64,000 nt of DNA from Gemmatimonadota bacterium (GTDB taxonomy: Bacteria > Gemmatimonadota > Gemmatimonadetes > Gemmatimonadales > GWC2-71-9): positions 42,253 to 106,252 of the forward strand of contig JAZDCY010000035.1 in assembly GCA_036679645.1 (NCBI GenBank), given 5' to 3'. The number at the start of each line of letters is the position of its first letter. The stretch's first letter is position 1. Positions 36,129 to 53,045 of this stretch are shown one piece after another. The position numbers and the translations under genes were made by a program. The notes under the pieces were generated by a model, which had not been told where the DNA came from, searched no databases, and saw nothing but the letters and a program-made list of their open reading frames with translations.

Positions 36129-36203
36129 CGGGGCTGACGGGGCTCGAACCCGCGACCTCCGGTGTGACAGACCGGCACTCTAACCAAGCTGAGCTACAGC
36201 CCC
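36129..36203 (-). tRNA. tRNA-Asp(GTC)
   Basis: GGGGCTG/CAGCCCC acceptor stem, anticodon arm CCGGT-CTGTCAC-ACCGG, GGTTCGAG T-loop. CCA not encoded. Confidence 0.97.
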
Positions 36204-38123: not shown

Positions 38124-38198
38124 TGGGCGAAGAGGGATTCGAACCCCCGACTTCCTGCGTGTAAAGCAGGCGCTCTGGACCAGCTGAGCTATTCGCCC
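38124..38198 (-). tRNA. tRNA-Val(TAC)
   Basis: GGGCGAA/TTCGCCC acceptor stem, CCTGC-TTTACAC-GCAGG anticodon arm, GGTTCGAATCC. CCA not encoded. Confidence 0.97.
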
Positions 38199-38435: not shown

Positions 38436-39430
38436 GCATCGGTACTTGGGGCGTCTGGGGGGAGGACCCAGCCGTCGTCCAGTCGTGCCCGCCGGAGCTG
38501 ATCGTCGCGTCGGCGACGCCACCACAACAGGCCCACCAGAACCACGGTCACGGACCAGAACACGGCAAACGACGTGAATATCTGGAGCCACCCGTAGCGG
38601 CTGCGAAGCTCACGCTGCCACAGCCCTTCGAATTGCGCCAGCGAGACCAGGTGCGTGCGCCGGACCGCCAAATCGAAACTCCGCACATCCCGCAGGTTCT
38701 CGAGGAACGGGGCGAGCCCTCGCTCGCCGCCGATCCGCTCCAGGAATAGAACCGCCGCCGTAGAGAGCGCATAGGCAGCGTGTGCGTGCGCGGGCCCCGA
38801 GCGCAGCTCCCGGTTCAACCGGGCAAACGACGGAATATTCCCTTTGGCCAGTGTCCAATTGACACCGAGCGCGTCGAGCCGACCCCACTCGGCTGCCGCG
38901 CGCGCCGCGTACCCCTCGTCGAACCAGAGCGGAATCTGCGCCCTCGTGGCGCGATGTAGCGCCAGGTGCGCCAACTCGTGCCGCAGCGTGGTCAGGGGAT
39001 CGCCGGACACCCGAAGCACGATCGAGCCCGATCGGGGAAACGCCGCCGCGGCACTCCACGGCGGAAGACGGTGCGCGGTTACCGAGTCAAAACGCTCGCG
39101 CGATCGTGTCACCACCAGCCGGATCGGTAACGAGTCCACGCCGGGGAGACCGGGCCACCGCGCCGGTCGATCTGCAAGCTCGGCCAGAGCGGTGGCGAGT
39201 GCAGCATCACCCGCCCAGTAAACGGCGACCACCCGCCCGACGCGCACCGTCTCCGGCACCTGGGCCGGCAGCGCTACGGGTACGAGGGCCGCTAGGAGCG
39301 CGGCGGCTCTTCCCCCTGGGCCACGAGATCGAGCGTCTCTTTGCAGCGTTTCCCCCAGGGATTGAACTTGTTGGCCGCGAATCCCTTCTCCCAGGTCTCG
39401 TTGGCGCCCTCTCGATCGCCGGAGTACCAA
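38432..39430 (-). CDS. Peptidase MA-like zinc metalloprotease with a C-terminal membrane anchor (true start probably near 39300-39350)
   Basis: HELAH (HExxH) plus PLWFDEG, a signal-like LLAALVPVALPA-Q and a C-terminal TM followed by WWRRRR. Confidence 0.78.
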   Translation of the reverse strand: MVLRRSRGRQRDLGEGIRGQQVQSLGETLQRDARSRGPGGRAAALLAALVPVALPAQVPETVRVGRVVAVYWAGDAALATALAELADRPARWPGLPGVDSLPIRLVVTRSRERFDSVTAHRLPPWSAAAAFPRSGSIVLRVSGDPLTTLRHELAHLALHRATRAQIPLWFDEGYAARAAAEWGRLDALGVNWTLAKGNIPSFARLNRELRSGPAHAHAAYALSTAAVLFLERIGGERGLAPFLENLRDVRSFDLAVRRTHLVSLAQFEGLWQRELRSRYGWLQIFTSFAVFWSVTVVLVGLLWWRRRRDDQLRRARLDDGWVLPPDAPSTDA

Positions 39431-40152
39431 TGGGCCCGGCCTAGCTCGTAGTATGCCTCGATGAGATTCGGCCCCAGCGCAATTGTCTTCTGAAAAAAAG
39501 TCAGCGCGTCTTCGAACATCTCGCGCTCGAGGTAGACGAGCCCAAGATAGTAGTGCGCGTAGAGGGTCGCCTTCTTGTCGTTGTCCAGCCGAATCGCCTT
39601 GGATAGGTGCTCGATCGCCTCACCGAAGATGCGCTTCTTGAGACAGATGAACCCAACGTTGATGCGGGCCAGCGAGTTGGCCGGCTCCTTCATGAGCACT
39701 TTCTGGAAGGTGGCGAGCGCGTCGTCGAAGTCCTCGTGCTTCATCTGCGCCCACCCAAGCAACGACTCCGCCTGCGCATCTCCCGGCGAGTATTGCAACG
39801 CCTTGGTGAGCGCCTGAATGGCACCCTCGTAATCGCCCAGGGAAATCAGGTTCCACCCTTTCTCGATGAGCGTCGAAGCATCGATGTGACTGACGTGCAT
39901 CGCCGGAATCTGGCCAGTGAACTGCGGTACCTGGTCGCTCGAGTCGCCCTGCTGCAGCTGTTTGTACCGGTCAACTAGCACGCGGATGTCTTCCTTCAAA
40001 GCCGTCAGATCGGTGATACCCTGATCGACAGCCTTGAACAACGCGATGATCTCCCGCTTGACCCCCTCCCGCTGCTCACCAGACGACGCCTCGTCGAGGC
40101 GCTGCTGAATCGAGATGTAGCTCGCGCGAAGTGGGGTAACGATCTCACTCAT
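39292..40152 (-). CDS. Coiled-coil plus TPR protein
   Basis: N-terminal helical hairpin, then about five TPR repeats. Overlaps the cheW stop. Confidence 0.85.
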   Translation of the reverse strand: MSEIVTPLRASYISIQQRLDEASSGEQREGVKREIIALFKAVDQGITDLTALKEDIRVLVDRYKQLQQGDSSDQVPQFTGQIPAMHVSHIDASTLIEKGWNLISLGDYEGAIQALTKALQYSPGDAQAESLLGWAQMKHEDFDDALATFQKVLMKEPANSLARINVGFICLKKRIFGEAIEHLSKAIRLDNDKKATLYAHYYLGLVYLEREMFEDALTFFQKTIALGPNLIEAYYELGRAHWYSGDREGANETWEKGFAANKFNPWGKRCKETLDLVAQGEEPPRS

Positions 40153-40627
40153 GACCCGCCTCCACCGTCAGGGCCGCGAGAGCGACCTGTTCGTCGGACG
40201 ACAGGAGCCGTGACACCGCCAGAATCACAATCGTCCTCCCGGCGATCGTCACCATCCCATTGATGAACTGTGCCGCCAACCCTCGCACCAGATCGGGCGG
40301 CAACGTAATCTCCTCCGCCCGCACCTTGCGTACTTCGATGACCTGATCCACCACCACCCCAATCCGCGTGCTCTCCAGCTCCAGCACGATGACCCGCGTC
40401 TCATCACGCACCGTCGCCGGCGCCGTAAGCCGTTTCCGCAGGTCAACGAGTGGAATGGTGCTGTCGCCATACGAGAACACGCCCTCGAGAAACGCGGGCG
40501 CCTTCGGTAACGGCGTGGGTTCACGATAGCGGACGATCCGTTCCGCTTCGAAGACGCTCACCGCAAAACGCTGCGCGCCGACCCGGAACACGACCAACTG
40601 AACGTCGTCGCCCTGTTGTTCAGGCAT
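40145..40627 (-). CDS. cheW: Chemotaxis coupling protein CheW
   Basis: QLVVFRVG, TPLPKAPAFLEG, IPLVDLRKRL, GVVVDQV. Confidence 0.9.
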   Translation of the reverse strand: MPEQQGDDVQLVVFRVGAQRFAVSVFEAERIVRYREPTPLPKAPAFLEGVFSYGDSTIPLVDLRKRLTAPATVRDETRVIVLELESTRIGVVVDQVIEVRKVRAEEITLPPDLVRGLAAQFINGMVTIAGRTIVILAVSRLLSSDEQVALAALTVEAGHE

Positions 40628-41051
40628 CGGCCACCGCCTGTCGCTCGAGTTCGAGCTGATCAATCACCGCTGCGACATCCACCACGGGGATCATTGCCCC
40701 CTCATACCGCGTGACGCCGGCGGCCCATGGCATTTCCCACACCGCCGGAACGGGCTCGGGCGCGTCCGGCAGCAGGTCCGCCGCCTCGTCGACCTCGAGC
40801 GCCAACCGCCGCTCAGCTGCCGCAACGAGCACTGCCGTGTAAGACGTGGCACTCGGCGCCGGTCCGTGCGTGAGCACCGCCCCGAGATGCACGACGGGCA
40901 CCAGATCCCCACTGATGCGCATCACACCGCGAACGGCGGCGCACGCCACGGGCACTGCTAGGACCTGGCCGATCGGCACGATCTGCTCTACGTGCTCGAC
41001 GGCGAGCGCGTAATGCCGCTCTCCGACCCGGACGAGCAGACAGCCACTCAC
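40620..41051 (-). CDS. cheW: CheW-like protein
   Basis: [35 protein letters not shown]. Confidence 0.82.
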
Positions 41052-42121
41052 TCAGCACTCCGTAGCTCGAGCTCGGCGTGCACCTGCGGTCCGATTTCCC
41101 GCAGGGGAACAACGCGGCCCACACCGCCTCGCTGGACCGCCGCCTGTGGCATCCCGAAGATCACGGCGGTCTCCTCATCCTGCGCTAGGCCGATGCCTCC
41201 CGCGTCGTGAATCGCTCGCAGTCCCTCCGCTCCATCCCGTCCCATACCTGTCAGCACGACCCCGATCGCTCGCGGACCAAAGGCACGCGCAACGGAGCGA
41301 AACAACGGATCCGCCGCAGGACGCACACCCCACACGGCGGGCCCCTCATCGAGACGCAGGAGTGGTTCTCCAGCGACCCTATCGACGAGCAAATGATAAC
41401 CGCCCGGGGCGACGTACGCCGTGTCGGCCAGGAACGGAATGCCGTCGTCGGCCTCGACCACGCGAAACGCGCTACCCTGATCCAGGCGCTCGGCCAGACT
41501 CCGCGTGAACTTCGGCGGCATGTGCTGCACGATGACCGCGCCCGCGCCGAGCCCAGGTTGAAACGCCGGAACCACCTCGGCGAGCGCCCGTGGGCCACCC
41601 GTACTTGCCGCAATCGCGACCGCGAGCGTCGCCCGGCCCTGGATGGCATACTCGGGACGCCGGGCCGGTGGTGCTGGCGCCGCGCGCGCTAGCATGGGTA
41701 CGCGCGAAAGATTGGCCGCGACCGCCGCGTCCAGCGCCGCGATCAGCGGCGGACCGATCTGCTCGGCGGCAGCCCGTGTATGCACTTCAGGCTTCGCAAC
41801 GATTTCCACCGCGCCCAGTTCGAGCGCCCGGATCGCGGCCGCGGTGCCCGGCCCTGCATAGGCACTCACCACGACGACCGGCCGCGGTGACTCGCTCATG
41901 ATGTACCCGATCGCGCCGAGGCCATCGAGTTCAGGCATCTCGATATCCATCGTCACGACATCGGGAGTATGTAGATGCACCTTCGCGACCGCGTCCATAC
42001 CATCGCGCGCGGTCCCGACGACGCGGAAGCGCCCGGACGCATTGATGACGTCGCACAACACGCGCCGCATGAGCGCGCTGTCGTCCGCAACGAGCACAGT
42101 GCGAGGGCGCTCAGAGTTCAC
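41048..42121 (-). CDS. cheB: Chemotaxis methylesterase CheB (REC plus catalytic domain)
   Basis: ADDS...MDIEMP receiver; catalytic triad motifs [18 protein letters not shown]. Confidence 0.95.
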
Positions 42122-42602
42122 GCGGCGTATTCCCCACCGACCAAACGACGAGCGTCCCCGCCCCAACATCGAAGCGCAGTGACCGGCCGCGCTCGCCGCC
42201 CAACGCCTCCCCGATGACCGGTACATCCGCTTCATCGAGGGCACGGCGACAGGCGACGGCGTTTCGCTCACCAATATGCTCCACGCCGGGCGCCATCAGC
42301 GCTGCGAACATGCGCGCGCCACCGACCAATCGCGCTGTGAGACGCTCGTACACACCGCCTTCGCGCTCCATCTCGCCGATCAGATGCGGTACGGCGGTCT
42401 CGGCGAACCGCGCCGGATTAGACCGATCGCGGGCAAACTCGGTGGATGGCAGCACAACATGCACCACGCCGCCAACACGCGCGTCGGGATCGTGCAGCAC
42501 CACCGCAACGCAGCTCCCCAACCCGTGGACGGCAATCGTCCGATCCGCACCGACAACCGCTACCCGCCCGAGGCCGACCGGCACTTCACCCCGGTGCTTC
42601 AC
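42111..42602 (-). CDS. cheD: Chemoreceptor glutamine deamidase CheD
   Basis: [30 protein letters not shown]. Confidence 0.92.
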
Positions 42603-43414
42603 GACGCCCGCCGGTAAATTCGCTCGCGCGCGTTGTCCAGCACGAGCCGGTCGCGCGCTTCGCCGAACAGCGTTTCGACCTTCCCGAGCACCAGAATCCC
42701 GCCGGGCGCGAGCGCTTCGGTAAACGCCAGGAACAACCGTTCCTGAGTCGTACGGTCGAAGTAGATCACTACGTTGCGACACAGGATCAGATCGTACGGC
42801 GGATGGGGCGGCGGTTCGCGCAGCAGGTCGTGCCGCCGGAACCGGACGAGCGTACGGACCCCGGCGGCAATCCGCCGGGGTGTGGAGTCGCTGAAATGCC
42901 GCTCCAACAGTGACGGCGGGAGCTCGTCGAAAGCGCTCTCGGGATACGACCCTGTCTCGGCCCGTGCCAGACTCGCTCGGTCGAAGTCCGTCGCGTCAAC
43001 GAATGCCGGAATGGAGGTCGACCAGCCGACCTCGCGCGCCTGCTCCAGCAGCACCATGGAGAGTGTGTATGGCTCCTCACCGGAGGCGCAACCCGCCGAC
43101 CAGCAGCGGACGGCGCCCTGCCGGATGCGCCAGAGATGTGGGACGTGATGCGCGCGGAGCGCGTCCCACGTATCGTGGTTTCGATAGAACTTGCTGACGT
43201 TGATCGTGAGCGTGTCGAGCAAGCGCTCGTATTCCGTGTCATCCTGCGCGAGCAAGCGCGCGTAGTCGTCATACGTATGAACGTTCCGAGCGCGCATCCG
43301 GACGGCAAGACGGCGCCGCAGGCAGCTCTCCTTGTACGCGTCGCATCCGAATCCGCGAGCCCGCGCGACCTGCTCCAGCAGCGCCGCAAGGGCGGGATCC
43401 CCTGCCTCGGTCAC
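42599..43414 (-). CDS. cheR: Chemotaxis methyltransferase CheR
   Basis: TINVSKFYRN, WSAGCASGEEPY, CRNVVIYF, LGKVE. Confidence 0.94.
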   Translation of the reverse strand: MTEAGDPALAALLEQVARARGFGCDAYKESCLRRRLAVRMRARNVHTYDDYARLLAQDDTEYERLLDTLTINVSKFYRNHDTWDALRAHHVPHLWRIRQGAVRCWSAGCASGEEPYTLSMVLLEQAREVGWSTSIPAFVDATDFDRASLARAETGSYPESAFDELPPSLLERHFSDSTPRRIAAGVRTLVRFRRHDLLREPPPHPPYDLILCRNVVIYFDRTTQERLFLAFTEALAPGGILVLGKVETLFGEARDRLVLDNARERIYRRAS

Positions 43415-45030
43415 GCCAGGGCGCTCAGCGTTTCGAGGTTGGTCCGCACGAGTTCGTGGCCCGGGTTCAGGTCGAGCGCCTGTCTCCAGCACGCGCTGGC
43501 CTGCTCGCGGTCGCCGCGCTTGTACGCGATGTTGCCCAACTTGAAGTAGAGATCGTCACCGAGCTGCGGGTCGAGCTTGATGGCGCGCTGGTACGCGGTC
43601 GCCGCATCATCGTATCGGGCCGCGCGATACAGGATATCCCCCAAGTTCTTCGATAGCTGCGGCACGGACGGCTCATCGGCCAGGGCGCCACGCAGGAGAT
43701 CCTCTGCTTCATCAACGGAACCGAGCAACTCGATGAGTGCGGCAAGATTGTTGGCGAGGACGGCGCTCTTGGGATGACGCTCCAGGCCCTCGCGCAGCAC
43801 CGATTCCGCCTCGTCGAACGCTTCCTGCCCGGCCGCTGCGAGGCCACGCGCCCAGTACCACAGGGGAGGGAGGGGCGCATCGCCCGCAACCTCTGCCGCC
43901 CGGTCGAGCCGACCCTCCGCCACCTGGTACTCCCCGCGCTGGAGCGCCGAGATGCCCCACCCCGTCATGATGCGGGCGTCGTAACGGGCGCGACCCGCCG
44001 CATCGCCGTAGGCCGAATCCGCGTGGTCGAGCTGGCCCAGCTGCTCGTACGCCAGGGCGAGATTGTGCAGCACCGCGGGCCGGGCACCCAGGTGCTCGGC
44101 CGCATTGCGGAAAAAACCCGTGGCATCCCGCCACCGCGCCTGCCTCAACGCTACGAGCCCGAGAAAGAAGTGCGCCTCACCATCTGCCGGTCGGAGCTCT
44201 ACCACACGGCGAAACTCGCGCGCCGCCTCGTCGAGCATTCCCGTCCTGTAGAAGGCGATACCCAAGTTGCGGTGCTCCTGCACACGACCCTCATTGACCT
44301 CCGCCACCGCGGGCGCCTGACTGCGCCCCACCCGATGGGCGAACCCGGCGGAGATCAGGCCGTACAACGCCTTCCCAACGTCGAACTCGACGAGCCCTGA
44401 GTCCTCGATGACGCAGGCGACGTCCCGTTCGCCGTCGAACAACGGCAGGATCTGCCGCTGCTGGTCGGTCAGCTCCACGTCCGAGGCCTCGAGACGCCCG
44501 CCGTCCACGCTGAAGATCAGATCGAAGGACGGGACTTTCTTCTCGATGAGGCTCCACTCATCGACGCGGCGCGCTCCTTCGAGCAGAAGCGACTCCGGCT
44601 TGATGGAGACGACGAACTCCTCGCGTTCCGGCCGTACCTCGCTCTCGAAGTTGAACGTTCCCTGCGTCCAGGTGAAGAGATAGTAGACCGCCTCCTGGAT
44701 CTGGACGCGCATGTTGCCCTCGAGATCGTCACGACTTAGGAGCCCGAGATCCACGAGGATCTGGCCGAGTCGCTTGTCGCGCTCTTCCGACTGCTTCTCG
44801 ATGGCCTCGCTCAGCTGATCCTGCGTGATCTTCCCTGCCTTGACGAGCATGTCGCCCAACCGGTCGCGCCGGTTGACGATCGAGGCGTAGGAGATCTGTC
44901 CCCGGTCGAAGTAGATGTAGCCGAAGTTGGAGCGGTCGGCGATTGACAGGCACCCGGTCTTCTGCCCCAGCGCGAGCAACTGCAACACATCGGGGAGTGA
45001 CGCCTCTTTGAGGCTGCCTTTGATCGCCAT
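43411..45030 (-). CDS. DUF4388/PATAN - MshEN - winged-helix-like - TPR protein
   Basis: GSLKEASLPDVLQLL...KTGCL, tandem RLGxxLV motifs, LLLEGARRVDEW, C-terminal TPRs. Confidence 0.85.
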   Translation of the reverse strand: MAIKGSLKEASLPDVLQLLALGQKTGCLSIADRSNFGYIYFDRGQISYASIVNRRDRLGDMLVKAGKITQDQLSEAIEKQSEERDKRLGQILVDLGLLSRDDLEGNMRVQIQEAVYYLFTWTQGTFNFESEVRPEREEFVVSIKPESLLLEGARRVDEWSLIEKKVPSFDLIFSVDGGRLEASDVELTDQQRQILPLFDGERDVACVIEDSGLVEFDVGKALYGLISAGFAHRVGRSQAPAVAEVNEGRVQEHRNLGIAFYRTGMLDEAAREFRRVVELRPADGEAHFFLGLVALRQARWRDATGFFRNAAEHLGARPAVLHNLALAYEQLGQLDHADSAYGDAAGRARYDARIMTGWGISALQRGEYQVAEGRLDRAAEVAGDAPLPPLWYWARGLAAAGQEAFDEAESVLREGLERHPKSAVLANNLAALIELLGSVDEAEDLLRGALADEPSVPQLSKNLGDILYRAARYDDAATAYQRAIKLDPQLGDDLYFKLGNIAYKRGDREQASACWRQALDLNPGHELVRTNLETLSALA

Positions 45031-45031
45031 A

Positions 45032-46999
45032 CTAGACGAGTTCCTCGATGATCCGGTCGTTCGTGTCGGGCCAGCGCCAGATCACCTTTTCCCGACTGCG
45101 CACACCGCCGGCTGGCGAGACGACGATCCCGCTAGTTCGCATGCGGAACGACGAGCGCCGCGGCCGAGCACCGCCATCGAGCAGATCGCGCGCGAAGGGG
45201 ACTGTCAGCACTGCATCGCGGGTCTCCGCGGCATCTACCACGCGCTGCACCGTGCCGATCACCGTTCGCAGACTCTCGGCATTGCGGTCGGCAAGAAACG
45301 CGGCAAGATCCGGATCCGACGTGCCGGTGCGCGTCTCGAGCTCGCGGACGACCAGGGAATACCGCAGGTCTCGATCTGGTGGGTCGATCTCGGCCACGAG
45401 CCCGCCCTCCATACGTGAGATGAGGCGTTCGTGGACGCCGTCCAACTCGCGCGGCGCCACGTTGACCGTGAAGACGACCTGTCGTTCCTGATCGACGAGC
45501 GCATTGAACAGGTGGAACAACTCCTCTTGGGACCGCTCCTTCCCCGCGAGGAGATGGACATCATCGAGCAGGAGGGCCGTCGCGCGGCGATACCGGGACC
45601 GCCACGCATCGACACGGTCCATCTCGATCGCCTGGACCAACTCGTCTATGAAATCCTGCGCGGAGAGACAGGCGACCAGTGCGTCGGGCGCTGCCGATAG
45701 GGCGTGGCCCACCGCATGGAGCAGGTGCGTCTTGCCAACGCCAGTGGGGCCGGCCAGCACCAGTGGGTTGTACGTCGTCGCCGGGTGCTCCGCCACGGCA
45801 CGCGCGGAGGTCAGCGCCAGCTGGTTGGACTCGGCGTCCACGAAATCGTCGAAGGCCCATGCTGCAGAAGGCCCCGGCGGTGGTGCAAGACCGTCCCGGG
45901 CCCGGCTCACGAGCTCCTCCGCGGCCGGCACTTGATCGGGATCGTGAAACACGGCGTCACCGGCGCGCGCGGCATCGAGCGTCGTCATCTCACGCTCCAA
46001 CGCCTGCAGCCGCTCAACATCCGCCCCATATTCCCGCAACACTGCGTCCGCGCCCACGGGCGTATCCTGCTCGAGCAACGTGACAATCCGCGCGGTCCGG
46101 TAGCCCTGACCTTCCCAGAACACGACGGCTTCGTGCAGTCGCTGCCGCCACGCGTCCATCTGCTTGGCGAGCGCACTTCCAACCGACGAGAGGAATTGAT
46201 CGAACTCGTTACCGGCGACCACGCCCTCGCTTGCAGCCGCCGCCAGCTCGGCTGCTGCGTCATCTACCTCCCCAACCGACTCGCCGATCCCCAGCAGCGT
46301 ACGCACACCGTCCGCCGTAATGGCGCCTTCGTTGACGGCCTGAAACGCGATGAGGCGGTTGAGCAATCCAATCAGCTCCCGTACGTTCCGCGCGTCGACC
46401 TCGGCGATCGCCTCGAGCACCGCCCGCTCGAAATCCACGCCACGCTCGTCAGCCTTCCTGCGCAAGATGGCGAGGCGCGTCTCGAACTCCGGCGTACCGA
46501 TATCCACGACCAACCCGCCCGCAAACCGCGAGATGAGCCGCTCGTCCAGATTCTCGATCTCGTTTGGGGGACGGTCGCTCGAGAGGACGATCTGTTTGCC
46601 ACCCTCGAGAAACGCCGTGATGAAACGCAACAGCTCCGACTGGGTCTCCAGCCGGCTTGCGAGGAAGTGGACATCATCGATGAGCACCACGTCGACACCC
46701 GTGAAACGATTGCGGAACGCCTCGCTCTGTCCGGCCGCGACGGCTGCATGAAACGACTCGACGAATTCCTCGAGCGTGAGGTACTCAACCGACAGCGCCG
46801 GACTCACTTCCTTGGCGAGACGCCCGATAGCCATCATCAAATGCGTCTTCCCCAGACCCGACGCCGAGTAGATGAACAGGGGGTTGTACGCAGTACCCGG
46901 ACTCTCGGCAACCGTCCGCGCCGCAGCGACGGCGAGCCGGTTGCTGGGGCCGACCACGAACGCGTCGAAGGAATACCGCGGGTTGAGATCGACGGTCAC
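45032..46999 (-). CDS. Protein with two DnaA/Hda-type AAA+ modules, lacking DnaA domains I and IV
   Basis: Two copies of F(D/E)xFV...N...YNPL...GxGKTHL...DDVH...RLISR. Confidence 0.88.
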
Positions 47000-47595
47000 T
47001 GCGGCGGCTCCTCACTGAGCTTACGGAGGACGCTCTCCGAGATTGCCTTCAGAGTCTCGAACACGCCCGTTCCCGACACCGCCGCGGCGGGAACACTCGG
47101 CACGCTTCGGAAGTTGAGTTGGTCGTCCAGCTCATCGACGGTGAGTATCAGGTCGCGCGGAAGATCCTGCTTGTTGTACTGCAGAACGAGCGGAACGGTC
47201 CGAACATCGATACCCTGTTCCAGCAGGTTGTGCTGGAGGTTTTGCAAGCTCGTGATGTTCTCGTCGAGCTGGCGGGCCTGACTGTCCCCGACGAAGACGA
47301 CGCCGTCCGCACCCTGTAGCACGAGTTTGCGAGTCGCGTTGTAATACACTTGTCCCGGTACCGTATAGAGCTGGAAACGCGTCGTGAAACCTGAGATCGT
47401 TCCTAACTCGATGGGCAGGAAATCGAAAAACAGTGTCCGATCCGTATGGGTCGCGAGCGACACCATGCGACCACGACGCTCCTCAGGTACGCGCTGATAG
47501 ACGTACTGCAAGTTGGTCGTCTTGCCGGATCGCCCGGGACCGTAGTAGACGATCTTGCACGTGATCTCGCGGGTCGTGAAATTGACGAGCGACAT
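46996..47595 (-). CDS. mglA: MglA-family small Ras-like GTPase
   Basis: [35 protein letters not shown]. Confidence 0.95.
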
Positions 47596-47600
47596 GAGAT

Positions 47601-48068
47601 TTACCGAAAAAGGGTCGCGAGGCTCTCGTTGAGATCCCGCTCGAAGTCGGCAGCGAGTACGGCGCGGTGCTCTGGGGGCGGCGGCGCTGCCGCCCGCAGT
47701 TCCTCCACCAGTTCCTCGAAGAATAACTGCACCAGCCCAACGGACGATTCCGCGCCGTAGACCACGAGCACTAGCATCTGGCCGCGCACGCTGTCGAATC
47801 CCGAGAGGAAGATGCCGTGTGACTCACCCTTCTGGTTCAGCGCGCTGAACGGGGCCTGCTCCAGCATCCGCGCCAACTCACTGGTCGACGCTATGATCCC
47901 CGCCCCCAGTGCCGCCGCAGCCATGACATCCACGGCCCTCGCAAAGCCATGCTGCGCGATCACCTGCCCCGACGGCGTCATCACGAGCGTAAGACGGGCC
48001 CCGGCCTCGACCACAAACCGTTCCAGCGGCTCGAGGACCCATGGCTCGATCGCGCGGGTGGACTTCAT
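47601..48068 (-). CDS. mglB: MglB-like Roadblock protein with a C-terminal helix
   Basis: [15 protein letters not shown]...ELARML, SSVGLV, C-terminal [14 protein letters not shown]. Adjacent to mglA. Confidence 0.8.
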
Positions 48069-48415
48069 CCCATCTTCTCCACCGCCCGCAGCATTTCCAG
48101 CCGCGCGAGCCCGACATTCACATCCGCCCCGCCGACGCAGACGAGAAGTGTCACTTCGGGTCCGGGCACCGCCAGCAGCACACCATGATCGGCCTGAAGG
48201 TGGAGGAACTGCGGTGCGCCTATTCCGCTCGAGGCTGATGCCAGCGAAAGCCGATTCGCCAGCGACGCCGCCAACGCGGCCATCGCGTTGCCACGCACGC
48301 CTTCCATCAGCGCGTCCGCCACTACGAGACCGTCGTCCAGGGACACGAGCATCGCCCCCTGCAACCCCCGTACGCGGGTAACGCCATCGAGTGCTCGCCC
48401 GATCCGCGACGTCAT
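48065..48415 (-). CDS. Roadblock/LC7 domain protein
   Basis: VRGLQGAMLVSLDDGLVV, AMAALAA, VNVGLARLEM. Confidence 0.85.
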   Translation of the reverse strand: MTSRIGRALDGVTRVRGLQGAMLVSLDDGLVVADALMEGVRGNAMAALAASLANRLSLASASSGIGAPQFLHLQADHGVLLAVPGPEVTLLVCVGGADVNVGLARLEMLRAVEKMG

Positions 48416-49221
48416 CGCTCCTCCGCCTGCAACCAGGTGCGCGCCGCAGCGGCCGCACGCTGTGCGAGGAGAGCAACCCGCCCGGGCGGAACCGCCCGGT
48501 CTCGCTTGATCAACAGGAAGGTCCCCTGGCGTGGCTGGGATACGTGTAGATGGCCGTCCGGGGCCTCCACCGCGATGGCACGCCACACCCCCAATTCGAG
48601 CAGGCGCGCCGCCCGTTCCGCTTCCTGCGCCGCCCCGGCAAGATACGCGGCCACCTCGGCCGCCACATCCTCACCGGATGCGTTTCGCACCCCACCCCCC
48701 AACACGCGACCTTGCCCATCGACGAGCAGAATGCCTTCCTCGGCGCCGTCGAATCCGGCGAACACGTCGGCCCGGATCTCCCCTGATGCCCGAGCTGCCG
48801 TGATGTCTGCTTCTGACGGCTCGGCGGCCGCACGCACTGTGCGGAGCGCCTGCACGACTGATTCGTCGGTAGGATCGGTCGCGAGGGCCGTCTCTAGATG
48901 GTCCAGGGCGCTGTCCAACTCATCGAGACGGTAGAGCAGGAACCCCATCCCCTTGTGAGCGCCGACGTGCCGCTCTTCCAACTGCAGCGCTCGCTCCCAC
49001 TCCTCATGAGCCGCGTCGAAGTTCCCCGCATCCACGAACACCCGAGCGAGCAAGTCGTGAGCATCCGCGTGATCGGAATGCCGCTCGCACCCGGCCATGG
49101 CCACCTTCACCGCCGCGTCCAAGTTACCCAACACCCTCAGCGCCTCTCCCAACTGGAGGAAGACGAGGCTGTCGGGATCGCGCGCCATCTCGGCCGTCAT
49201 CGCCTTGATGTCAGCGACCAT
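48412..49221 (-). CDS. TPR - Roadblock fusion protein
   Basis: N-terminal DPDSLVFLQLGEALR and TPRs; C-terminal ILLVDGQGRVLGG...AARLLELG...PGRV roadblock-like domain. Confidence 0.75.
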   Translation of the reverse strand: MVADIKAMTAEMARDPDSLVFLQLGEALRVLGNLDAAVKVAMAGCERHSDHADAHDLLARVFVDAGNFDAAHEEWERALQLEERHVGAHKGMGFLLYRLDELDSALDHLETALATDPTDESVVQALRTVRAAAEPSEADITAARASGEIRADVFAGFDGAEEGILLVDGQGRVLGGGVRNASGEDVAAEVAAYLAGAAQEAERAARLLELGVWRAIAVEAPDGHLHVSQPRQGTFLLIKRDRAVPPGRVALLAQRAAAAARTWLQAEER

Positions 49222-50359
49222 TGCCCCCTCGTATGACTCCATCGAGCGTGCGCGCTGCTTCGATCGCCGCCTCGACATCCTCGCGCTCCGTCGCGAGCGT
49301 GTCATCATGGCGTGCTATCGACAACCACCGCTCCCACCACTCGACCGCATCGTGGAACTTCCCTTGGAGCGCGAGTGCATTGCCCAACGCCTGGTGCGCC
49401 AGCGCAAGCATCGGATCGAGCCCAAGCGCCTGGCGCGCCGCCCGTTCCGCATCGCCGGCGCAGTCTCGAGCGAGCGAAACCTGCGCCGCCGCGAGATGCG
49501 CTTCGGCATCGGTCGGGTACGCGGCGACGAGCGCCTCGACCTCGACACGCGCGCTCTCGACGTCGCCGTCCGCCAGGAATCCGTCTACGCTGGCAAGGGT
49601 CCCGGACAGATCGTCTGCATCGCTGGACGACTCCCGCACCGGATCGCGCACTTGCACGATTCCAGCGCTCTGCAAGCCAAAGACCGTGCGCGCCACCTCG
49701 AATTCGGACCGGCCCAACGTTCCCGCAATCAGGCGCAGATCCACCGTCCCGTCGATCATCGCGAGCACTTCCCACTCGGTGGCCAGGAGATCGAGTTCTC
49801 CCTCCTCGGTGCCTTCCGCCAACACCAACGACGGGACCACGCCCAAGTGCGGGATCTGCCGCTCGATGCGCGACCATTCGTCGATCCGCCGAGCGCCCTC
49901 CATCATCAGGGCCTCAGTCGGGATCCGCACGAGCGCCTCTGCCGGCACCTCGCCAATCGGGCCTTCGTTGAACGAAAAGTAGCCCTCGCGCCAATTCATG
50001 ACCTCGAAGATCACCTCCTCGACTTGGAGATGGACCATTCGTTCGAGTTCTCGCTGGCTGATGGCATCGATCGCCACCAGGATCTCACCCAGCCGGCGTT
50101 CGTCGCCCCGTCGCTGCGTCTCCTGCGCGAGATTGAGCTCGGCCTCCGTAATTTTGCCGGCTCGCAACAACAACTCGCCCAGCCGATGGGGGTTGCTGCG
50201 GACTTCCGCAGCGATCACGCCGCCTTTCTCGAAATGGATTGTGCCGTGATTGCGTCGCAGCTGCGACGTCACGCGCAAAACACCGGTCTTGCGTGAGAGA
50301 TCGAGCAACTGGAAGACATCATGGATGCCGAGTTCGCGAAGGGGGCCTTCGATCGCCAC
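49211..50359 (-). CDS. DUF4388/PATAN - MshEN - winged-helix-like - TPR protein (paralogue)
   Basis: GPLRELGIHDVFQLL...KTGVL, tandem RLGE motifs, LMMEGARRIDEW, TPR tail. GTG start at 50359. Confidence 0.85.
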   Translation of the reverse strand: MAIEGPLRELGIHDVFQLLDLSRKTGVLRVTSQLRRNHGTIHFEKGGVIAAEVRSNPHRLGELLLRAGKITEAELNLAQETQRRGDERRLGEILVAIDAISQRELERMVHLQVEEVIFEVMNWREGYFSFNEGPIGEVPAEALVRIPTEALMMEGARRIDEWSRIERQIPHLGVVPSLVLAEGTEEGELDLLATEWEVLAMIDGTVDLRLIAGTLGRSEFEVARTVFGLQSAGIVQVRDPVRESSSDADDLSGTLASVDGFLADGDVESARVEVEALVAAYPTDAEAHLAAAQVSLARDCAGDAERAARQALGLDPMLALAHQALGNALALQGKFHDAVEWWERWLSIARHDDTLATEREDVEAAIEAARTLDGVIRGGNGR

Positions 50360-50360
50360 G

Positions 50361-53045
50361 TCAGGCCGCCTCGGTGCGGAAGATGTGCTGGAGATCGAGC
50401 GCCGTGCGTGCGTGCTTGCGCGCCTTCTGCGCATACGGACCAGCAGGATCTAGCTGCACGACCTGCTCCCACGCGTGCACCGCGTCGGGGTACCGGCGCA
50501 ACCGCGCCAGCGCGACCCCGCGGAAGAAACGCGCGGCGACGTGATCGGGATCGAACGCCGTCACCCGGTCGAACGCCTCGAGGGCTCGATCCAGGCGGCC
50601 GTCGTCCACGAGAGCCTGCGCGAGGGCCATCACCGCTTCGAGATCGCCGGGGTCGTCGTGAAGGAGATCGACCAGCAGGTTGATGGCCTCTCGCGCCCGC
50701 GCCGTCTGCCGGAAGACGCGGGACAGCGGGACCGCGGCTTCGGAGTAGGTCGGCAGCACGTCAAGCGCCGCCCGATACGTCGTCTCGGCGGCCGCCCAGT
50801 CCTCTCTCTCTTCATGCACGTGCCCCAGAGCAACGTGCGCCTGCACGAATCGCGCGTCGAGTTCTAGCGCGGACTCGTAGGCGGCGCGGGCGGCGTCCAA
50901 GTCGCCGGTTCCCGCCGCGATGTCTCCTTCGAGCTTGCGAATGTCTGCGCGTTGCGGTGCACGAGCACGCGCCAGTTTCACCGCATCCAGCGCGCCAGCC
51001 GGATCATGGTCGGCGCGGCGCGCTTCGGCAACTGCAAGGAGCACATCGAGATGTTCCGGCAATTCCGCTGCCAGGCGTTCGGCGTCATCCCGCGCCCCCC
51101 GCGCTTGTCCCAACGACACCCGGGCGCGCACCTCGCCGAGCCGGGCGTCGATCCGATCGGGGGCTCGCTCCCGCGCGGCGCGGAACCTCTCGAGCGCCTC
51201 ACCGTGCAGGCCGCGGCGCCGAAAGATCTCGCCGGCGAGCACCAGCGCTTCCACCTCGTCGGCGCCGCGCGATACTGCGCGGCCGGCTTCGGCGGCCGCC
51301 AACTCGAAGAGCCCCTTCGAGAGATAGTCCCGCGCGAGGGACAGTGGGTCGGTAGGCTCGGGATCCGCCCGCTTAGACGGACGGTCGAGCTCCTGGAAGA
51401 TCTGGTCGAGAACCCCCTGATCGAAATGGAGGCTCTGGGGCGCGATCTCCGTACTCACGTCCGCGGAGATCTCGGGCACGATCGAGATGGTCGGGTCCTC
51501 GTACTGGAGATCGATGGCCAGACGGAACTTCTGCGGCACGTAATAGGGGTCAAGCGTCTGGGCGCGGGTCACCGCACGCAACGCACCGTCATAGTCACCC
51601 ATCGCTGAGAGCGCAAAGCTCAAGTTGTAGTGCGCTTCTGCTGACTCGGGGTCGTTCTCGACTGCCCGGGCAAAAGCGTTGCGCGCGTCCTCCGTCCGCT
51701 GCAACTCGTTCAGCACGAGACCGATCCCATTCCAGGCGGGCGCGGACGCCGCGTTGAGATCGAGCACCTGCCGGTACGCCTGTAGGGCCAGCTGATAGCG
51801 GCCCAGGCGGGCGAGCAGCAGCCCGAGGTTCAAGCGAGGGACCTCCAGGGCTTCGCCGGAACGCATCGCATCGTGGAACTCCTCGATCGCATCTTCGTGA
51901 CTGGACTGATGGGCCAAGCTGACCGCGAGATTGTTGCGCGCGATGGCGTAATCTGATGCGATCTCGACCGCGCGGCTGTAGGACGCGACCGCGTCCTCGG
52001 ATTGCCCTAGCTGGTGCAGCACGACCCCACGCTCGTTCCAGAGCTTTGGGGAGTCCGGCACCTCACGCGTCAGCGTATCGTAGAGCTCGAGCGATGCCGC
52101 GTAGTCCCGTCGCAGCAGGTGGACTTCCGCCATCGCCTGCAGCACCCGGAGGCGCTCTTCGCCCTCATCGAGACCGATGCGATACTCGCGCAGCGCCTCG
52201 TTGTAGTACCCCTTCTGCCGAAATGCCAGCCCGAGATTGAAGTGGGCAAACGATCTCCCCTCTGCCGACTCGAGGGTCGCATCGTCGGGGATCCGAATGG
52301 GCTGCGACTTCCGGTCTCCGATATAGCGTTCGAGGGAGAGGTTGGTTTGCGCGCGCGCAAATGTCGGGTTGAGTCGAATGGCTCTCTTCGTTGCCTCGCG
52401 TGCCTCTTCATGCCGCCGAAGGTCGCCGTAGACGAACGCGATCAGGTAATGCGCGTCCGCGTTCTCCGGGTTCAGCTGCACCGCGCGGGAAAGCGCGGTC
52501 AGGGCGTCGGCGTTGAGACCGCGATTGTAGAGCACCTCGCCCAGGTAGAAATGGACAACGCTGCTGTCGTGATCGAGATCTGCCGCGCGCACAAACCACT
52601 CCGTCGCCTCTTCCAGGCGACCGCGGGTTTTTTCCGCCAGTCCCAGCTGAATGAGAGCCGCCAGATCGCCGGGGTCGCGGGACACGATCTCCTCGAACTC
52701 CTGCACCGCGGCATCGGACTGCCCCAACGACGCATACGCCCGTCCCAACTCCCAGCGGGCCTCGCGGTCTGCGGGCGTGACCCGCAAGCGCTCGTGGAGG
52801 GTCGTGACCCGCTCGTCGTAGTGCCCGGTCTGCTTGTAGGCGATTTCCAGATTCCGCTGAGCGACGAGCATCTTCGGATCCAACTCGAGCGCCCGCACGA
52901 AACACTGGATCGCCTCGTCGGCAAGGCCCTTTTGATAGAAGAGCACACCCAGATTGTTGTGCGCCCCCGAATCCGACTGGTCGATGCGGCGGGCGAAGGA
53001 ACGCAGGACCTGGCGGTCGCGCTCCGAGAGGACCAGAGGGGCCAT
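50361..53045 (-). CDS. Large cytoplasmic TPR-repeat protein (894 aa)
   Basis: Many canonical TPRs (AHNNLGVLF, AHFNLGLAF, AWNGIGLVL); no signal peptide. Confidence 0.88.
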   Translation of the reverse strand: MAPLVLSERDRQVLRSFARRIDQSDSGAHNNLGVLFYQKGLADEAIQCFVRALELDPKMLVAQRNLEIAYKQTGHYDERVTTLHERLRVTPADREARWELGRAYASLGQSDAAVQEFEEIVSRDPGDLAALIQLGLAEKTRGRLEEATEWFVRAADLDHDSSVVHFYLGEVLYNRGLNADALTALSRAVQLNPENADAHYLIAFVYGDLRRHEEAREATKRAIRLNPTFARAQTNLSLERYIGDRKSQPIRIPDDATLESAEGRSFAHFNLGLAFRQKGYYNEALREYRIGLDEGEERLRVLQAMAEVHLLRRDYAASLELYDTLTREVPDSPKLWNERGVVLHQLGQSEDAVASYSRAVEIASDYAIARNNLAVSLAHQSSHEDAIEEFHDAMRSGEALEVPRLNLGLLLARLGRYQLALQAYRQVLDLNAASAPAWNGIGLVLNELQRTEDARNAFARAVENDPESAEAHYNLSFALSAMGDYDGALRAVTRAQTLDPYYVPQKFRLAIDLQYEDPTISIVPEISADVSTEIAPQSLHFDQGVLDQIFQELDRPSKRADPEPTDPLSLARDYLSKGLFELAAAEAGRAVSRGADEVEALVLAGEIFRRRGLHGEALERFRAARERAPDRIDARLGEVRARVSLGQARGARDDAERLAAELPEHLDVLLAVAEARRADHDPAGALDAVKLARARAPQRADIRKLEGDIAAGTGDLDAARAAYESALELDARFVQAHVALGHVHEEREDWAAAETTYRAALDVLPTYSEAAVPLSRVFRQTARAREAINLLVDLLHDDPGDLEAVMALAQALVDDGRLDRALEAFDRVTAFDPDHVAARFFRGVALARLRRYPDAVHAWEQVVQLDPAGPYAQKARKHARTALDLQHIFRTEAA

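Follow-up and report, generated by a model that had tools for sequence, protein, structure and literature searches.

A tandem DnaA-type AAA+ protein encoded in a polarity and chemosensory gene cluster of Gemmatimonadota

The gene cluster around the tandem gene

The window is the whole stretch of DNA that was analysed in this work, with a length of 64,000 nucleotides. A gene for a protein with two DnaA-type AAA+ modules is located on its minus strand within a cluster of GTPase, roadblock, TPR, PATAN and che genes. The features of the cluster are listed below, where the parts of the tandem protein follow its gene.

39292..43492, minus strand: cheR, cheD, cheB, two cheW genes and a TPR gene
43411..45030, minus strand: PATAN (DUF4388)-TPR protein with an MshE-related c-di-GMP motif, directly downstream of the tandem gene and its putative partner
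45032..46999, minus strand: tandem DnaA-type AAA+ gene, GTG start, 655 aa by ORF translation
46286..46990, minus strand: module 1 (aa 4-238), DnaA domain III by sequence and fold comparison
46151..46207, minus strand: motif A (aa 265-283), an amphipathic helix and the first one of the bundle region, also present in the mini forms without ATPase
45890..46150, minus strand: helical bundle (aa 284-370), no Pfam match
45164..45859, minus strand: module 2 (aa 381-612), DnaA domain III
45035..45094, minus strand: motif B (aa 636-655), C-terminal tail
46996..47595, minus strand: MglA-like small GTPase, for which the libraries gave generic GTPase matches only
47601..48068, minus strand: roadblock protein, with a weak MglB match below the cut-off
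48065..48415, minus strand: second roadblock protein
48412..49308, minus strand: TPR-roadblock protein, start uncertain
49211..50359, minus strand: second PATAN-TPR protein with an MshE-related c-di-GMP motif, start uncertain
50361..53045, minus strand: large TPR protein, 894 aa
53049..56402, minus strand: cheW, cheY, cheA and cheC

The gene order is cheW-cheY-cheA-cheC-large TPR-PATAN/TPR-TPR/roadblock-roadblock-mglB-mglA-[tandem gene]-PATAN/TPR-cheR-cheD-cheB-cheW-cheW-TPR. The GTPase at 46996..47595 is taken by us to be MglA-like from its neighbourhood and general family features. The GTG of the tandem gene overlaps the mglA stop by 4 nt, and an earlier note on this DNA had described the two genes as translationally coupled. 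The overlap itself stands, but it is not special since several further genes of the cluster overlap by 4 nt or sit 1-10 nt apart. The steadiest neighbour is the downstream PATAN-TPR or TPR gene and not mglA. Of the 69 loci compared (L003-L071), 66 have a PATAN-TPR or TPR-only homologue as the next gene downstream, and the other three are two contig-end cuts and one remnant; mglA is found upstream in 60 of the 69 (eight without, one cut). The emphasis on mglA was therefore misplaced.

The source genome has three MCP matches and PilB/PilT-type ATPases, and no FliG match was found in it at 92.7% completeness. FliG was identified in 25 of the 99 genomes that are positive for the middle domain of the tandem protein, and flagellar chemotaxis was rejected as the general output on this count. 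The cluster is mostly not flagellar. PilT was identified in all 99 positive genomes and also in 47 of the 52 others, so it does not discriminate between them. The genome thus combines co-encoded GTPase, roadblock, TPR and PATAN proteins with a type IV pilus motor, as a pilus-polarity module would. Pili are likely the output of the cluster by analogy, because a PATAN protein is described to bind PilB1/PilC in Synechocystis (10.1101/2021.06.11.447907) and because in Myxococcus xanthus the TPR protein SgmX is recruited for pili by MglA (PMC11580455). PATAN genes have also been noted near mglA/mglB.

The co-occurrence of GTPase, roadblock, TPR and PATAN genes in one cluster is shared with the MglA/MglB/SgmX system of M. 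xanthus and the cyanobacterial PATAN systems. Unlike in those systems, the module is nested here in a che cluster and its genomes are mostly without FliG; the portions of the accounts consulted include no DnaA-type ATPase.

The cluster is flanked (window 35002-61580) by ileS-lspA-rluD on one side and by a peptidase gene, tRNA-Val (38124-38198), a TPR gene, tRNA-Asp (36129-36203) and mraW on the other side. The genes rluD, lspA, ileS and mraW are presumed from their motifs. The protein-gene flanks (ileS-lspA-rluD; peptidase, TPR, mraW) recur in many relatives. A second MglA-like GTPase, 51% identical, is encoded elsewhere in the source genome (C22:24218-24889).

Two modules of DnaA domain III and their interface faces

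PF00308 was matched twice in the 655-aa protein (E 1.8e-107, Pfam), and Pfam gave no match to PF08299 (DnaA_C, domain IV) or PF11638 (domain I). The AAA+ region begins at residue 5. All motifs quoted in the earlier note are present in the translation. Both modules exhibit Walker A/B, an arginine finger (R158 in module 1, R529 in module 2) and a sensor II arginine (R207 and R578), while sensor I is D142 in module 1 versus N513 in module 2. The description as two DnaA-type AAA+ modules lacking domains I and IV is thus borne out. The modules share 33% identity over 231 aa (E 4e-46). Their coding parts share just short DNA matches, the longest 97 nt at 69%, and the duplication is therefore old.

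The AlphaFold2 model of the protein (mean pLDDT 87.9) exhibits two AAA+ modules whose relative placing is not fixed by the model because its pTM is 0.52. A helical linker of ~130 aa had been claimed between them. A confident helical bundle is indeed found at 265-370, but residues 239-265 are flexible and of low confidence, so the linker is not uniform. The tail is of low confidence, and the monomer model has no helices beyond residue 608. A fold search with the middle bundle returned just common helical bundles (best Z 6.5, rmsd 3.1, 106 aligned), and an ESM Atlas search with residues 255-378 returned no usable match.

By sequence, both modules belong to domain III of DnaA (PF00308; PDB 8bv3, 8btg, 2z4r, 3r8f), with E 8.9e-62 to 8bv3. 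The fold of module 1 also agrees with that of domain III in B. subtilis DnaA (rmsd 1.7 over 233 columns). The DnaA of the source genome itself is encoded on another contig (C4), where a full-length dnaA of 483 aa, with domains I, III and IV, is followed by dnaN and holds the sole PF08299 match of the genome. Module 1 and module 2 are 44% and 37% identical to this DnaA, respectively. The tandem protein differs from DnaA in having two copies of domain III, neither domain I nor domain IV, and an added bundle and tail. Its gene is not positioned beside dnaN, and its modules do not group with DnaA orthologues. Moreover, each module has lost one interface face, and both modules are absent in some genomes.

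The earlier reading of the protein as "not an initiator but a repurposed ATPase" agrees with the missing domain IV, the separate dnaA-dnaN, which had been recommended as something to look for, and the tree described below. The three objections that had been anticipated do not apply. A hidden domain IV was rejected by the absence of a PF08299 match in the protein, a role as the sole dnaA of the genome by the dnaA-dnaN of contig C4, and a misassembly by full-length homologues in many genomes. One contig of sequencing run X1 also covers the whole stretch with zero differences, but it is possibly the assembly's own source and hence not independent; run X2 yielded short pieces only.

Many homologues are named DnaA or DnaA/Hda family in the databases. 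The DnaA label is likely due to TIGR00362 (DnaA), whose cut-off is passed (506.8 versus 343.9) by two matched stretches. Such labelling of tandem proteins inflates dnaA counts. TIGR03420 (Hda) is also passed from two stretches, at 195.7 versus a cut-off of 194.8. The tandem protein resembles Hda (TIGR03420; PDB 5x06, 3bos) as a DnaA-type AAA+ protein without domain IV, and its module 2 would be the arginine-finger donor. It differs from Hda in having two modules that are far closer to DnaA (E 1e-61 versus 1e-13 to Hda) and no N-terminal clamp-binding motif. In a pattern scan of 66 homologues for a QLSLF-like motif, taken from PMC5397184, the motif was absent in 65 and the one match was internal. 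IstB and DnaC were not indicated either: the NCBIfam scores are far under the cut-off, and no transposase or helicase neighbour was found among the 20 proteins scanned. Searches of the open-access literature found no description of this protein.

The interface residues were compared using the numbering of B. subtilis DnaA, which equals the module 1 position plus 106. According to PMC6669920 and 10.1101/2022.03.18.484894, ssDNA binding needs I190, K222 and T225, and the filament interface residues are R202, R206, F218, H231, R264, L269, G317 and R321. The sensor roles were taken from PMC4245941. The split into a finger face and a nucleotide face is our reading of the residue order in a figure legend of PMC6669920, combined with general AAA+ geometry. 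Module 1 retains sensor I D142, sensor II R207, F112, G211 and R215, and is without the ssDNA residues and the equivalents of R206 and H231. Module 2 retains the finger-face residues R467, R471, H496, R529 and L534 and the ssDNA positions V455, K487 and S490; the equivalent of F218 is lost and sensor I is mostly lost.

The same division was identified among homologues, counted over 57 rows per module of which 30 are close top hits from one family. The nucleotide face matches at 0.88 in module 1 versus 0.51 in module 2, the finger face at 0.50 versus 0.82, the ssDNA set at 0.08 versus 0.74 and all 68 canonical positions at 0.70 versus 0.58. True DnaAs match at 0.89-1.0 on the nucleotide face, finger face and ssDNA sets. 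The trend persists in 27 diverse rows, where it is weaker for sensor I and for K222, which is retained in 10 of the 27 module 2 rows. The ssDNA binding and both filament faces that DnaA holds in one protomer are hence split between the modules.

Because the modules retain opposite DnaA faces, one composite ATP site is suggested rather than a long filament. The simplest reading of these residues is that ATP bound in module 1 would be completed by R529 of module 2. The lid/sensor II part of module 2 is gone in six homologues, and the finger arginine is still there in five of the six. With its split faces the protein represents a covalent two-protomer model for the mutual completion of ATP sites between DnaA protomers.

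There may also be a second site, or chains formed head to tail, because the finger arginine of module 1 itself is present in 49 of the 57 rows and sensor II of module 2 in 46 of the 57. Both counts, and the Walker A/B motifs of both modules, agree with a polymerising scaffold, a possibility raised in the earlier note. Head-to-tail chains built through both AAA+ interfaces would in that case display the docking motifs along a filament at the cell pole. The loss of opposite faces makes this scaffold less likely, since module 1 lacks the R206/H231 equivalents, module 2 lacks F218 and mostly sensor I, and the module 2 lid is missing in six homologues. The mini forms described below would also be unable to polymerise via AAA+ interfaces. 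We regard a scaffold as very unlikely.

The ssDNA positions raise another reading in which module 2 would bind ssDNA, for example DNA imported by pili, and report to the PATAN-TPR/MglA pathway. Module 2 keeps the I190/K222/T225 positions at the level given above, and archaeal-type single modules keep them at 0.93 despite having no domain IV. However, the near loss of these positions in module 1 means no continuous ssDNA track, K222 is found in fewer than half of the diverse module 2 rows, and the residues sit on finger-face helices and may be kept for the interface. An ssDNA sensor is unlikely on this evidence.

The more degenerate tandem ATPases include those of L049, L050, L064, L065 and L066, all five from genomes with FliG, and that of L035, from a genome without FliG. 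Several FliG genomes show intact motifs.

Distribution, trees and ATPase-less forms

The middle-domain profile matched 99 of 151 genomes of the phylum, including the source genome (Gemmatimonadota by record names), and gave no match in the other 52. Within the family 69 of 71 genomes are positive; the remainder of the order adds 24 of 33 and the remainder of the class 5 of 27, and the other classes have 0 of 19. Record names indicate Gemmatimonadales/Gemmatimonadota. A full-alignment genome scan gave at least 22 tandem-type loci and at least 58 ordinary dnaA-like loci, a scan that does not set the outer limit of the family. Among the matches listed, 21 of the 22 tandem-type loci are named Gemmatimonadales/Gemmatimonadota and one is labelled Acidimicrobiia. 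The latter (L126) has the same gene order and 50% identity, and is possibly mislabelled or from a mixed bin.

Two trees were constructed from 98- and 86-row subsets; both are quick and unrooted with long branches, and no order of module origin is claimed from them. Module 2 and the true DnaAs of the phylum each occupy one side of a branch, and module 1 is placed with single-module forms. These single-module forms with the C-terminal motif were identified in six genomes of two distant families. They retain the tail and a TPR-only neighbour, while motif A was undetected in the six. Their nucleotide face is kept in 20 of 45 cells, versus 102 of 135 in module 1 of diverse tandem proteins.

The alignment of homologues has 66 rows, with four loci dropped beforehand (a remnant, a frameshift and two contig ends). 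F269 of motif A and W643 of motif B are invariant across 134 aligned sequences, and motif B (W/R/EE) is retained in the single-module and mini forms. The mini forms were identified in the order, where ten genomes have neither the middle domain nor the tandem gene. PATAN-TPR is retained in six of these ten, and all six encode a mini-ORF of 60-86 aa directly before PATAN-TPR that consists of motifs A and B without the ATPase. Neither the mini-ORF nor the PATAN-TPR gene was found with these queries in the remaining four. The six mini forms belong to three genera, and two of the six are near-identical, so that they perhaps represent three events. Three of the six genomes have no mglA at the locus.

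At the first Glu position of the tail, all 55 rows having Glu (of 63 rows in total) use the codon GAG, versus 74% in the gene body. The Glu-Glu of the tail likely also serves as ribosome-binding site for the gene that follows, and the conservation of the tail may in part be due to this site. Motif A and the Trp are left unexplained by it, because a ribosome-binding site needs neither. A reading of the tail as an EEVD-type clamp was dropped since the Glu-Glu is confounded by the ribosome-binding site.

These observations bear on whether the partner of the ATPase is another member of the cluster, such that it would act on MglA, MglB, the large TPR protein or Che proteins, and the mini forms would persist mainly for downstream translation. 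This is consistent with the frequent adjoining mglA, the GAG bias of the tail and the stop-start overlap with the PATAN-TPR gene. It fits poorly with the mini forms, which keep motif A and the invariant Trp, and with L051, where the full tandem gene adjoins PATAN-TPR without mglA or che genes. We consider such a partner quite unlikely.

The same genomes bear on a proposed link to true DnaA, in which the finger face of module 2 would dock on ATP-DnaA as a regulator or cap in the manner of Hda and couple replication to polarity signalling. Module 2 has kept the DnaA-like finger face together with K222, E227, F230, F233 and N234, which module 1 has lost. A separate Hda-like gene was not found in the source genome with the tandem protein as query, and in many loci mraW comes shortly after the cluster. 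On the other side, the clamp-binding motif is lacking, the six genomes of the mini forms keep the docking motifs with neither module, and about a third of the phylum genomes (52/151) show no match to the middle domain. Furthermore, the nucleotide face of module 1 decays where module 2 is absent, as expected if module 2 and not DnaA is its partner. The link suggested in the earlier note therefore finds no support here, and a DnaA regulator has a low probability. Nothing found ties the tandem protein to replication in general, and a role there is improbable, even though module 2 retains a finger face like that of DnaA.

Several related forms were observed. In L093, L095, L096 and L097, which have the mini form alone, PATAN-TPR is often shorter and without the c-di-GMP motif stretch and the last TPRs. 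A second gene type combines an N-terminal domain that weakly matches the C-terminal part of the Fe-hydrogenase large subunit (PF02906, E ~3e-5) with motif A and the helical bundle described above, without the ATPase; examples are L098:4363-6360 (G050:C50), P0258 and P0241, with a tail-like motif in L098 and P0258. L066 has motif A and no bundle match, and the end of this locus is cut. The gene is split across two frames in L069 (G127). In L068 (G113) just 85 codons of it are left, located between rluD and the peptidase gene, and the PATAN-TPR gene is absent.

Proposed function and other DnaA cores without domain IV

We propose, with slightly better than even confidence, that the tandem protein works as an adaptor which is switched by ATP, docks on the neighbouring PATAN-TPR protein and takes part in type IV pilus or polarity signalling. 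It likely acts outside replication because it has no origin-reading domain, is encoded in a polarity/chemosensory cluster and has short relatives without the ATPase. Motif A (265-283) and the disordered tail (636-655) would bind the TPR half of the neighbour. The finger R529 of module 2, with R467/R471/H496, would complete the ATP site of module 1 (K51, D108/D109, D142, R207) to give one main composite site, and the reverse site would be degenerate. The closing and opening of the pair would shift the two docking motifs that flank the bundle and module 2, and this shift would alter the state or place of the PATAN-TPR protein. The PATAN-TPR protein would then relay the signal to the pilus motor, as cyanobacterial PATAN domains do. 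The natural series from the full tandem protein to the single module and the 60-residue peptide provides ready constructs for partner finding.

AAA+ domains of the DnaA type are known from replication and transposition, as in DnaA, Hda, DnaC and IstB. A conserved use in motility signalling across the order, if true, would widen this view.

The bundle profile was searched against 1.84 billion representatives and gave 477 matches. The bundle occurs as repeats in 29 of the best 150 of these 477. Several proteins join 4-11 bundle repeats to one intact DnaA core that lacks DnaA_C; zinc ribbons are often present too, and the proteins that are named belong to Thermoplasmatota. The bundle-repeat and DnaA-core proteins are P0126, P0135, P0139, P0141, P0222, P0277-P0293, P0304 and P0306. 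Archaeal origin recognition is performed by Orc1/Cdc6 (PMC3984812). Eight proteins of 1.9-2.0 kaa (P0294-P0301) exhibit the order MshEN-DnaA-long helical region-DnaA. Their two modules are sisters with a support of 97 in a quick tree, and so represent a separate duplication. The second module has lost the finger face (0.35) and retains the nucleotide face (1.0), and this split is a partial mirror of the Gemmatimonadota split.

The Thermoplasmatota-named and MshEN-fused cores resemble the tandem protein in having PF00308 without PF08299; many have bundle repeats and one family has two modules. The Thermoplasmatota-named single modules differ in keeping both faces and the ssDNA residues (0.93-0.97) and in having no tail motif. 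In a quick tree, which is unsure because of long branches, the Gemmatimonadota modules are placed apart from the archaeal-type ones. These cores are database sequences for which no paper was found in the open-access literature.

A more tentative and rather doubtful generalization is that the AAA+ core of DnaA serves as a signalling switch that can be reused outside replication. At least twice, in Gemmatimonadota and in the MshEN-fused proteins, it would have been doubled into a pair that closes on itself and has a single composite ATP site, and the same helical unit would be joined to it in bacteria and archaea. In Gemmatimonadota the pair would be fused to a 60-residue TPR-docking adaptor controlling pili, and the input read by module 2 would possibly be ssDNA or DnaA.

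Further DnaA cores without domain IV occur in fusions with DUF835, with HEAT repeats or with a type II/IV secretion ATPase. The last fusion (PF00437) is exhibited by P0308, which is named Thermoplasmata archaeon.
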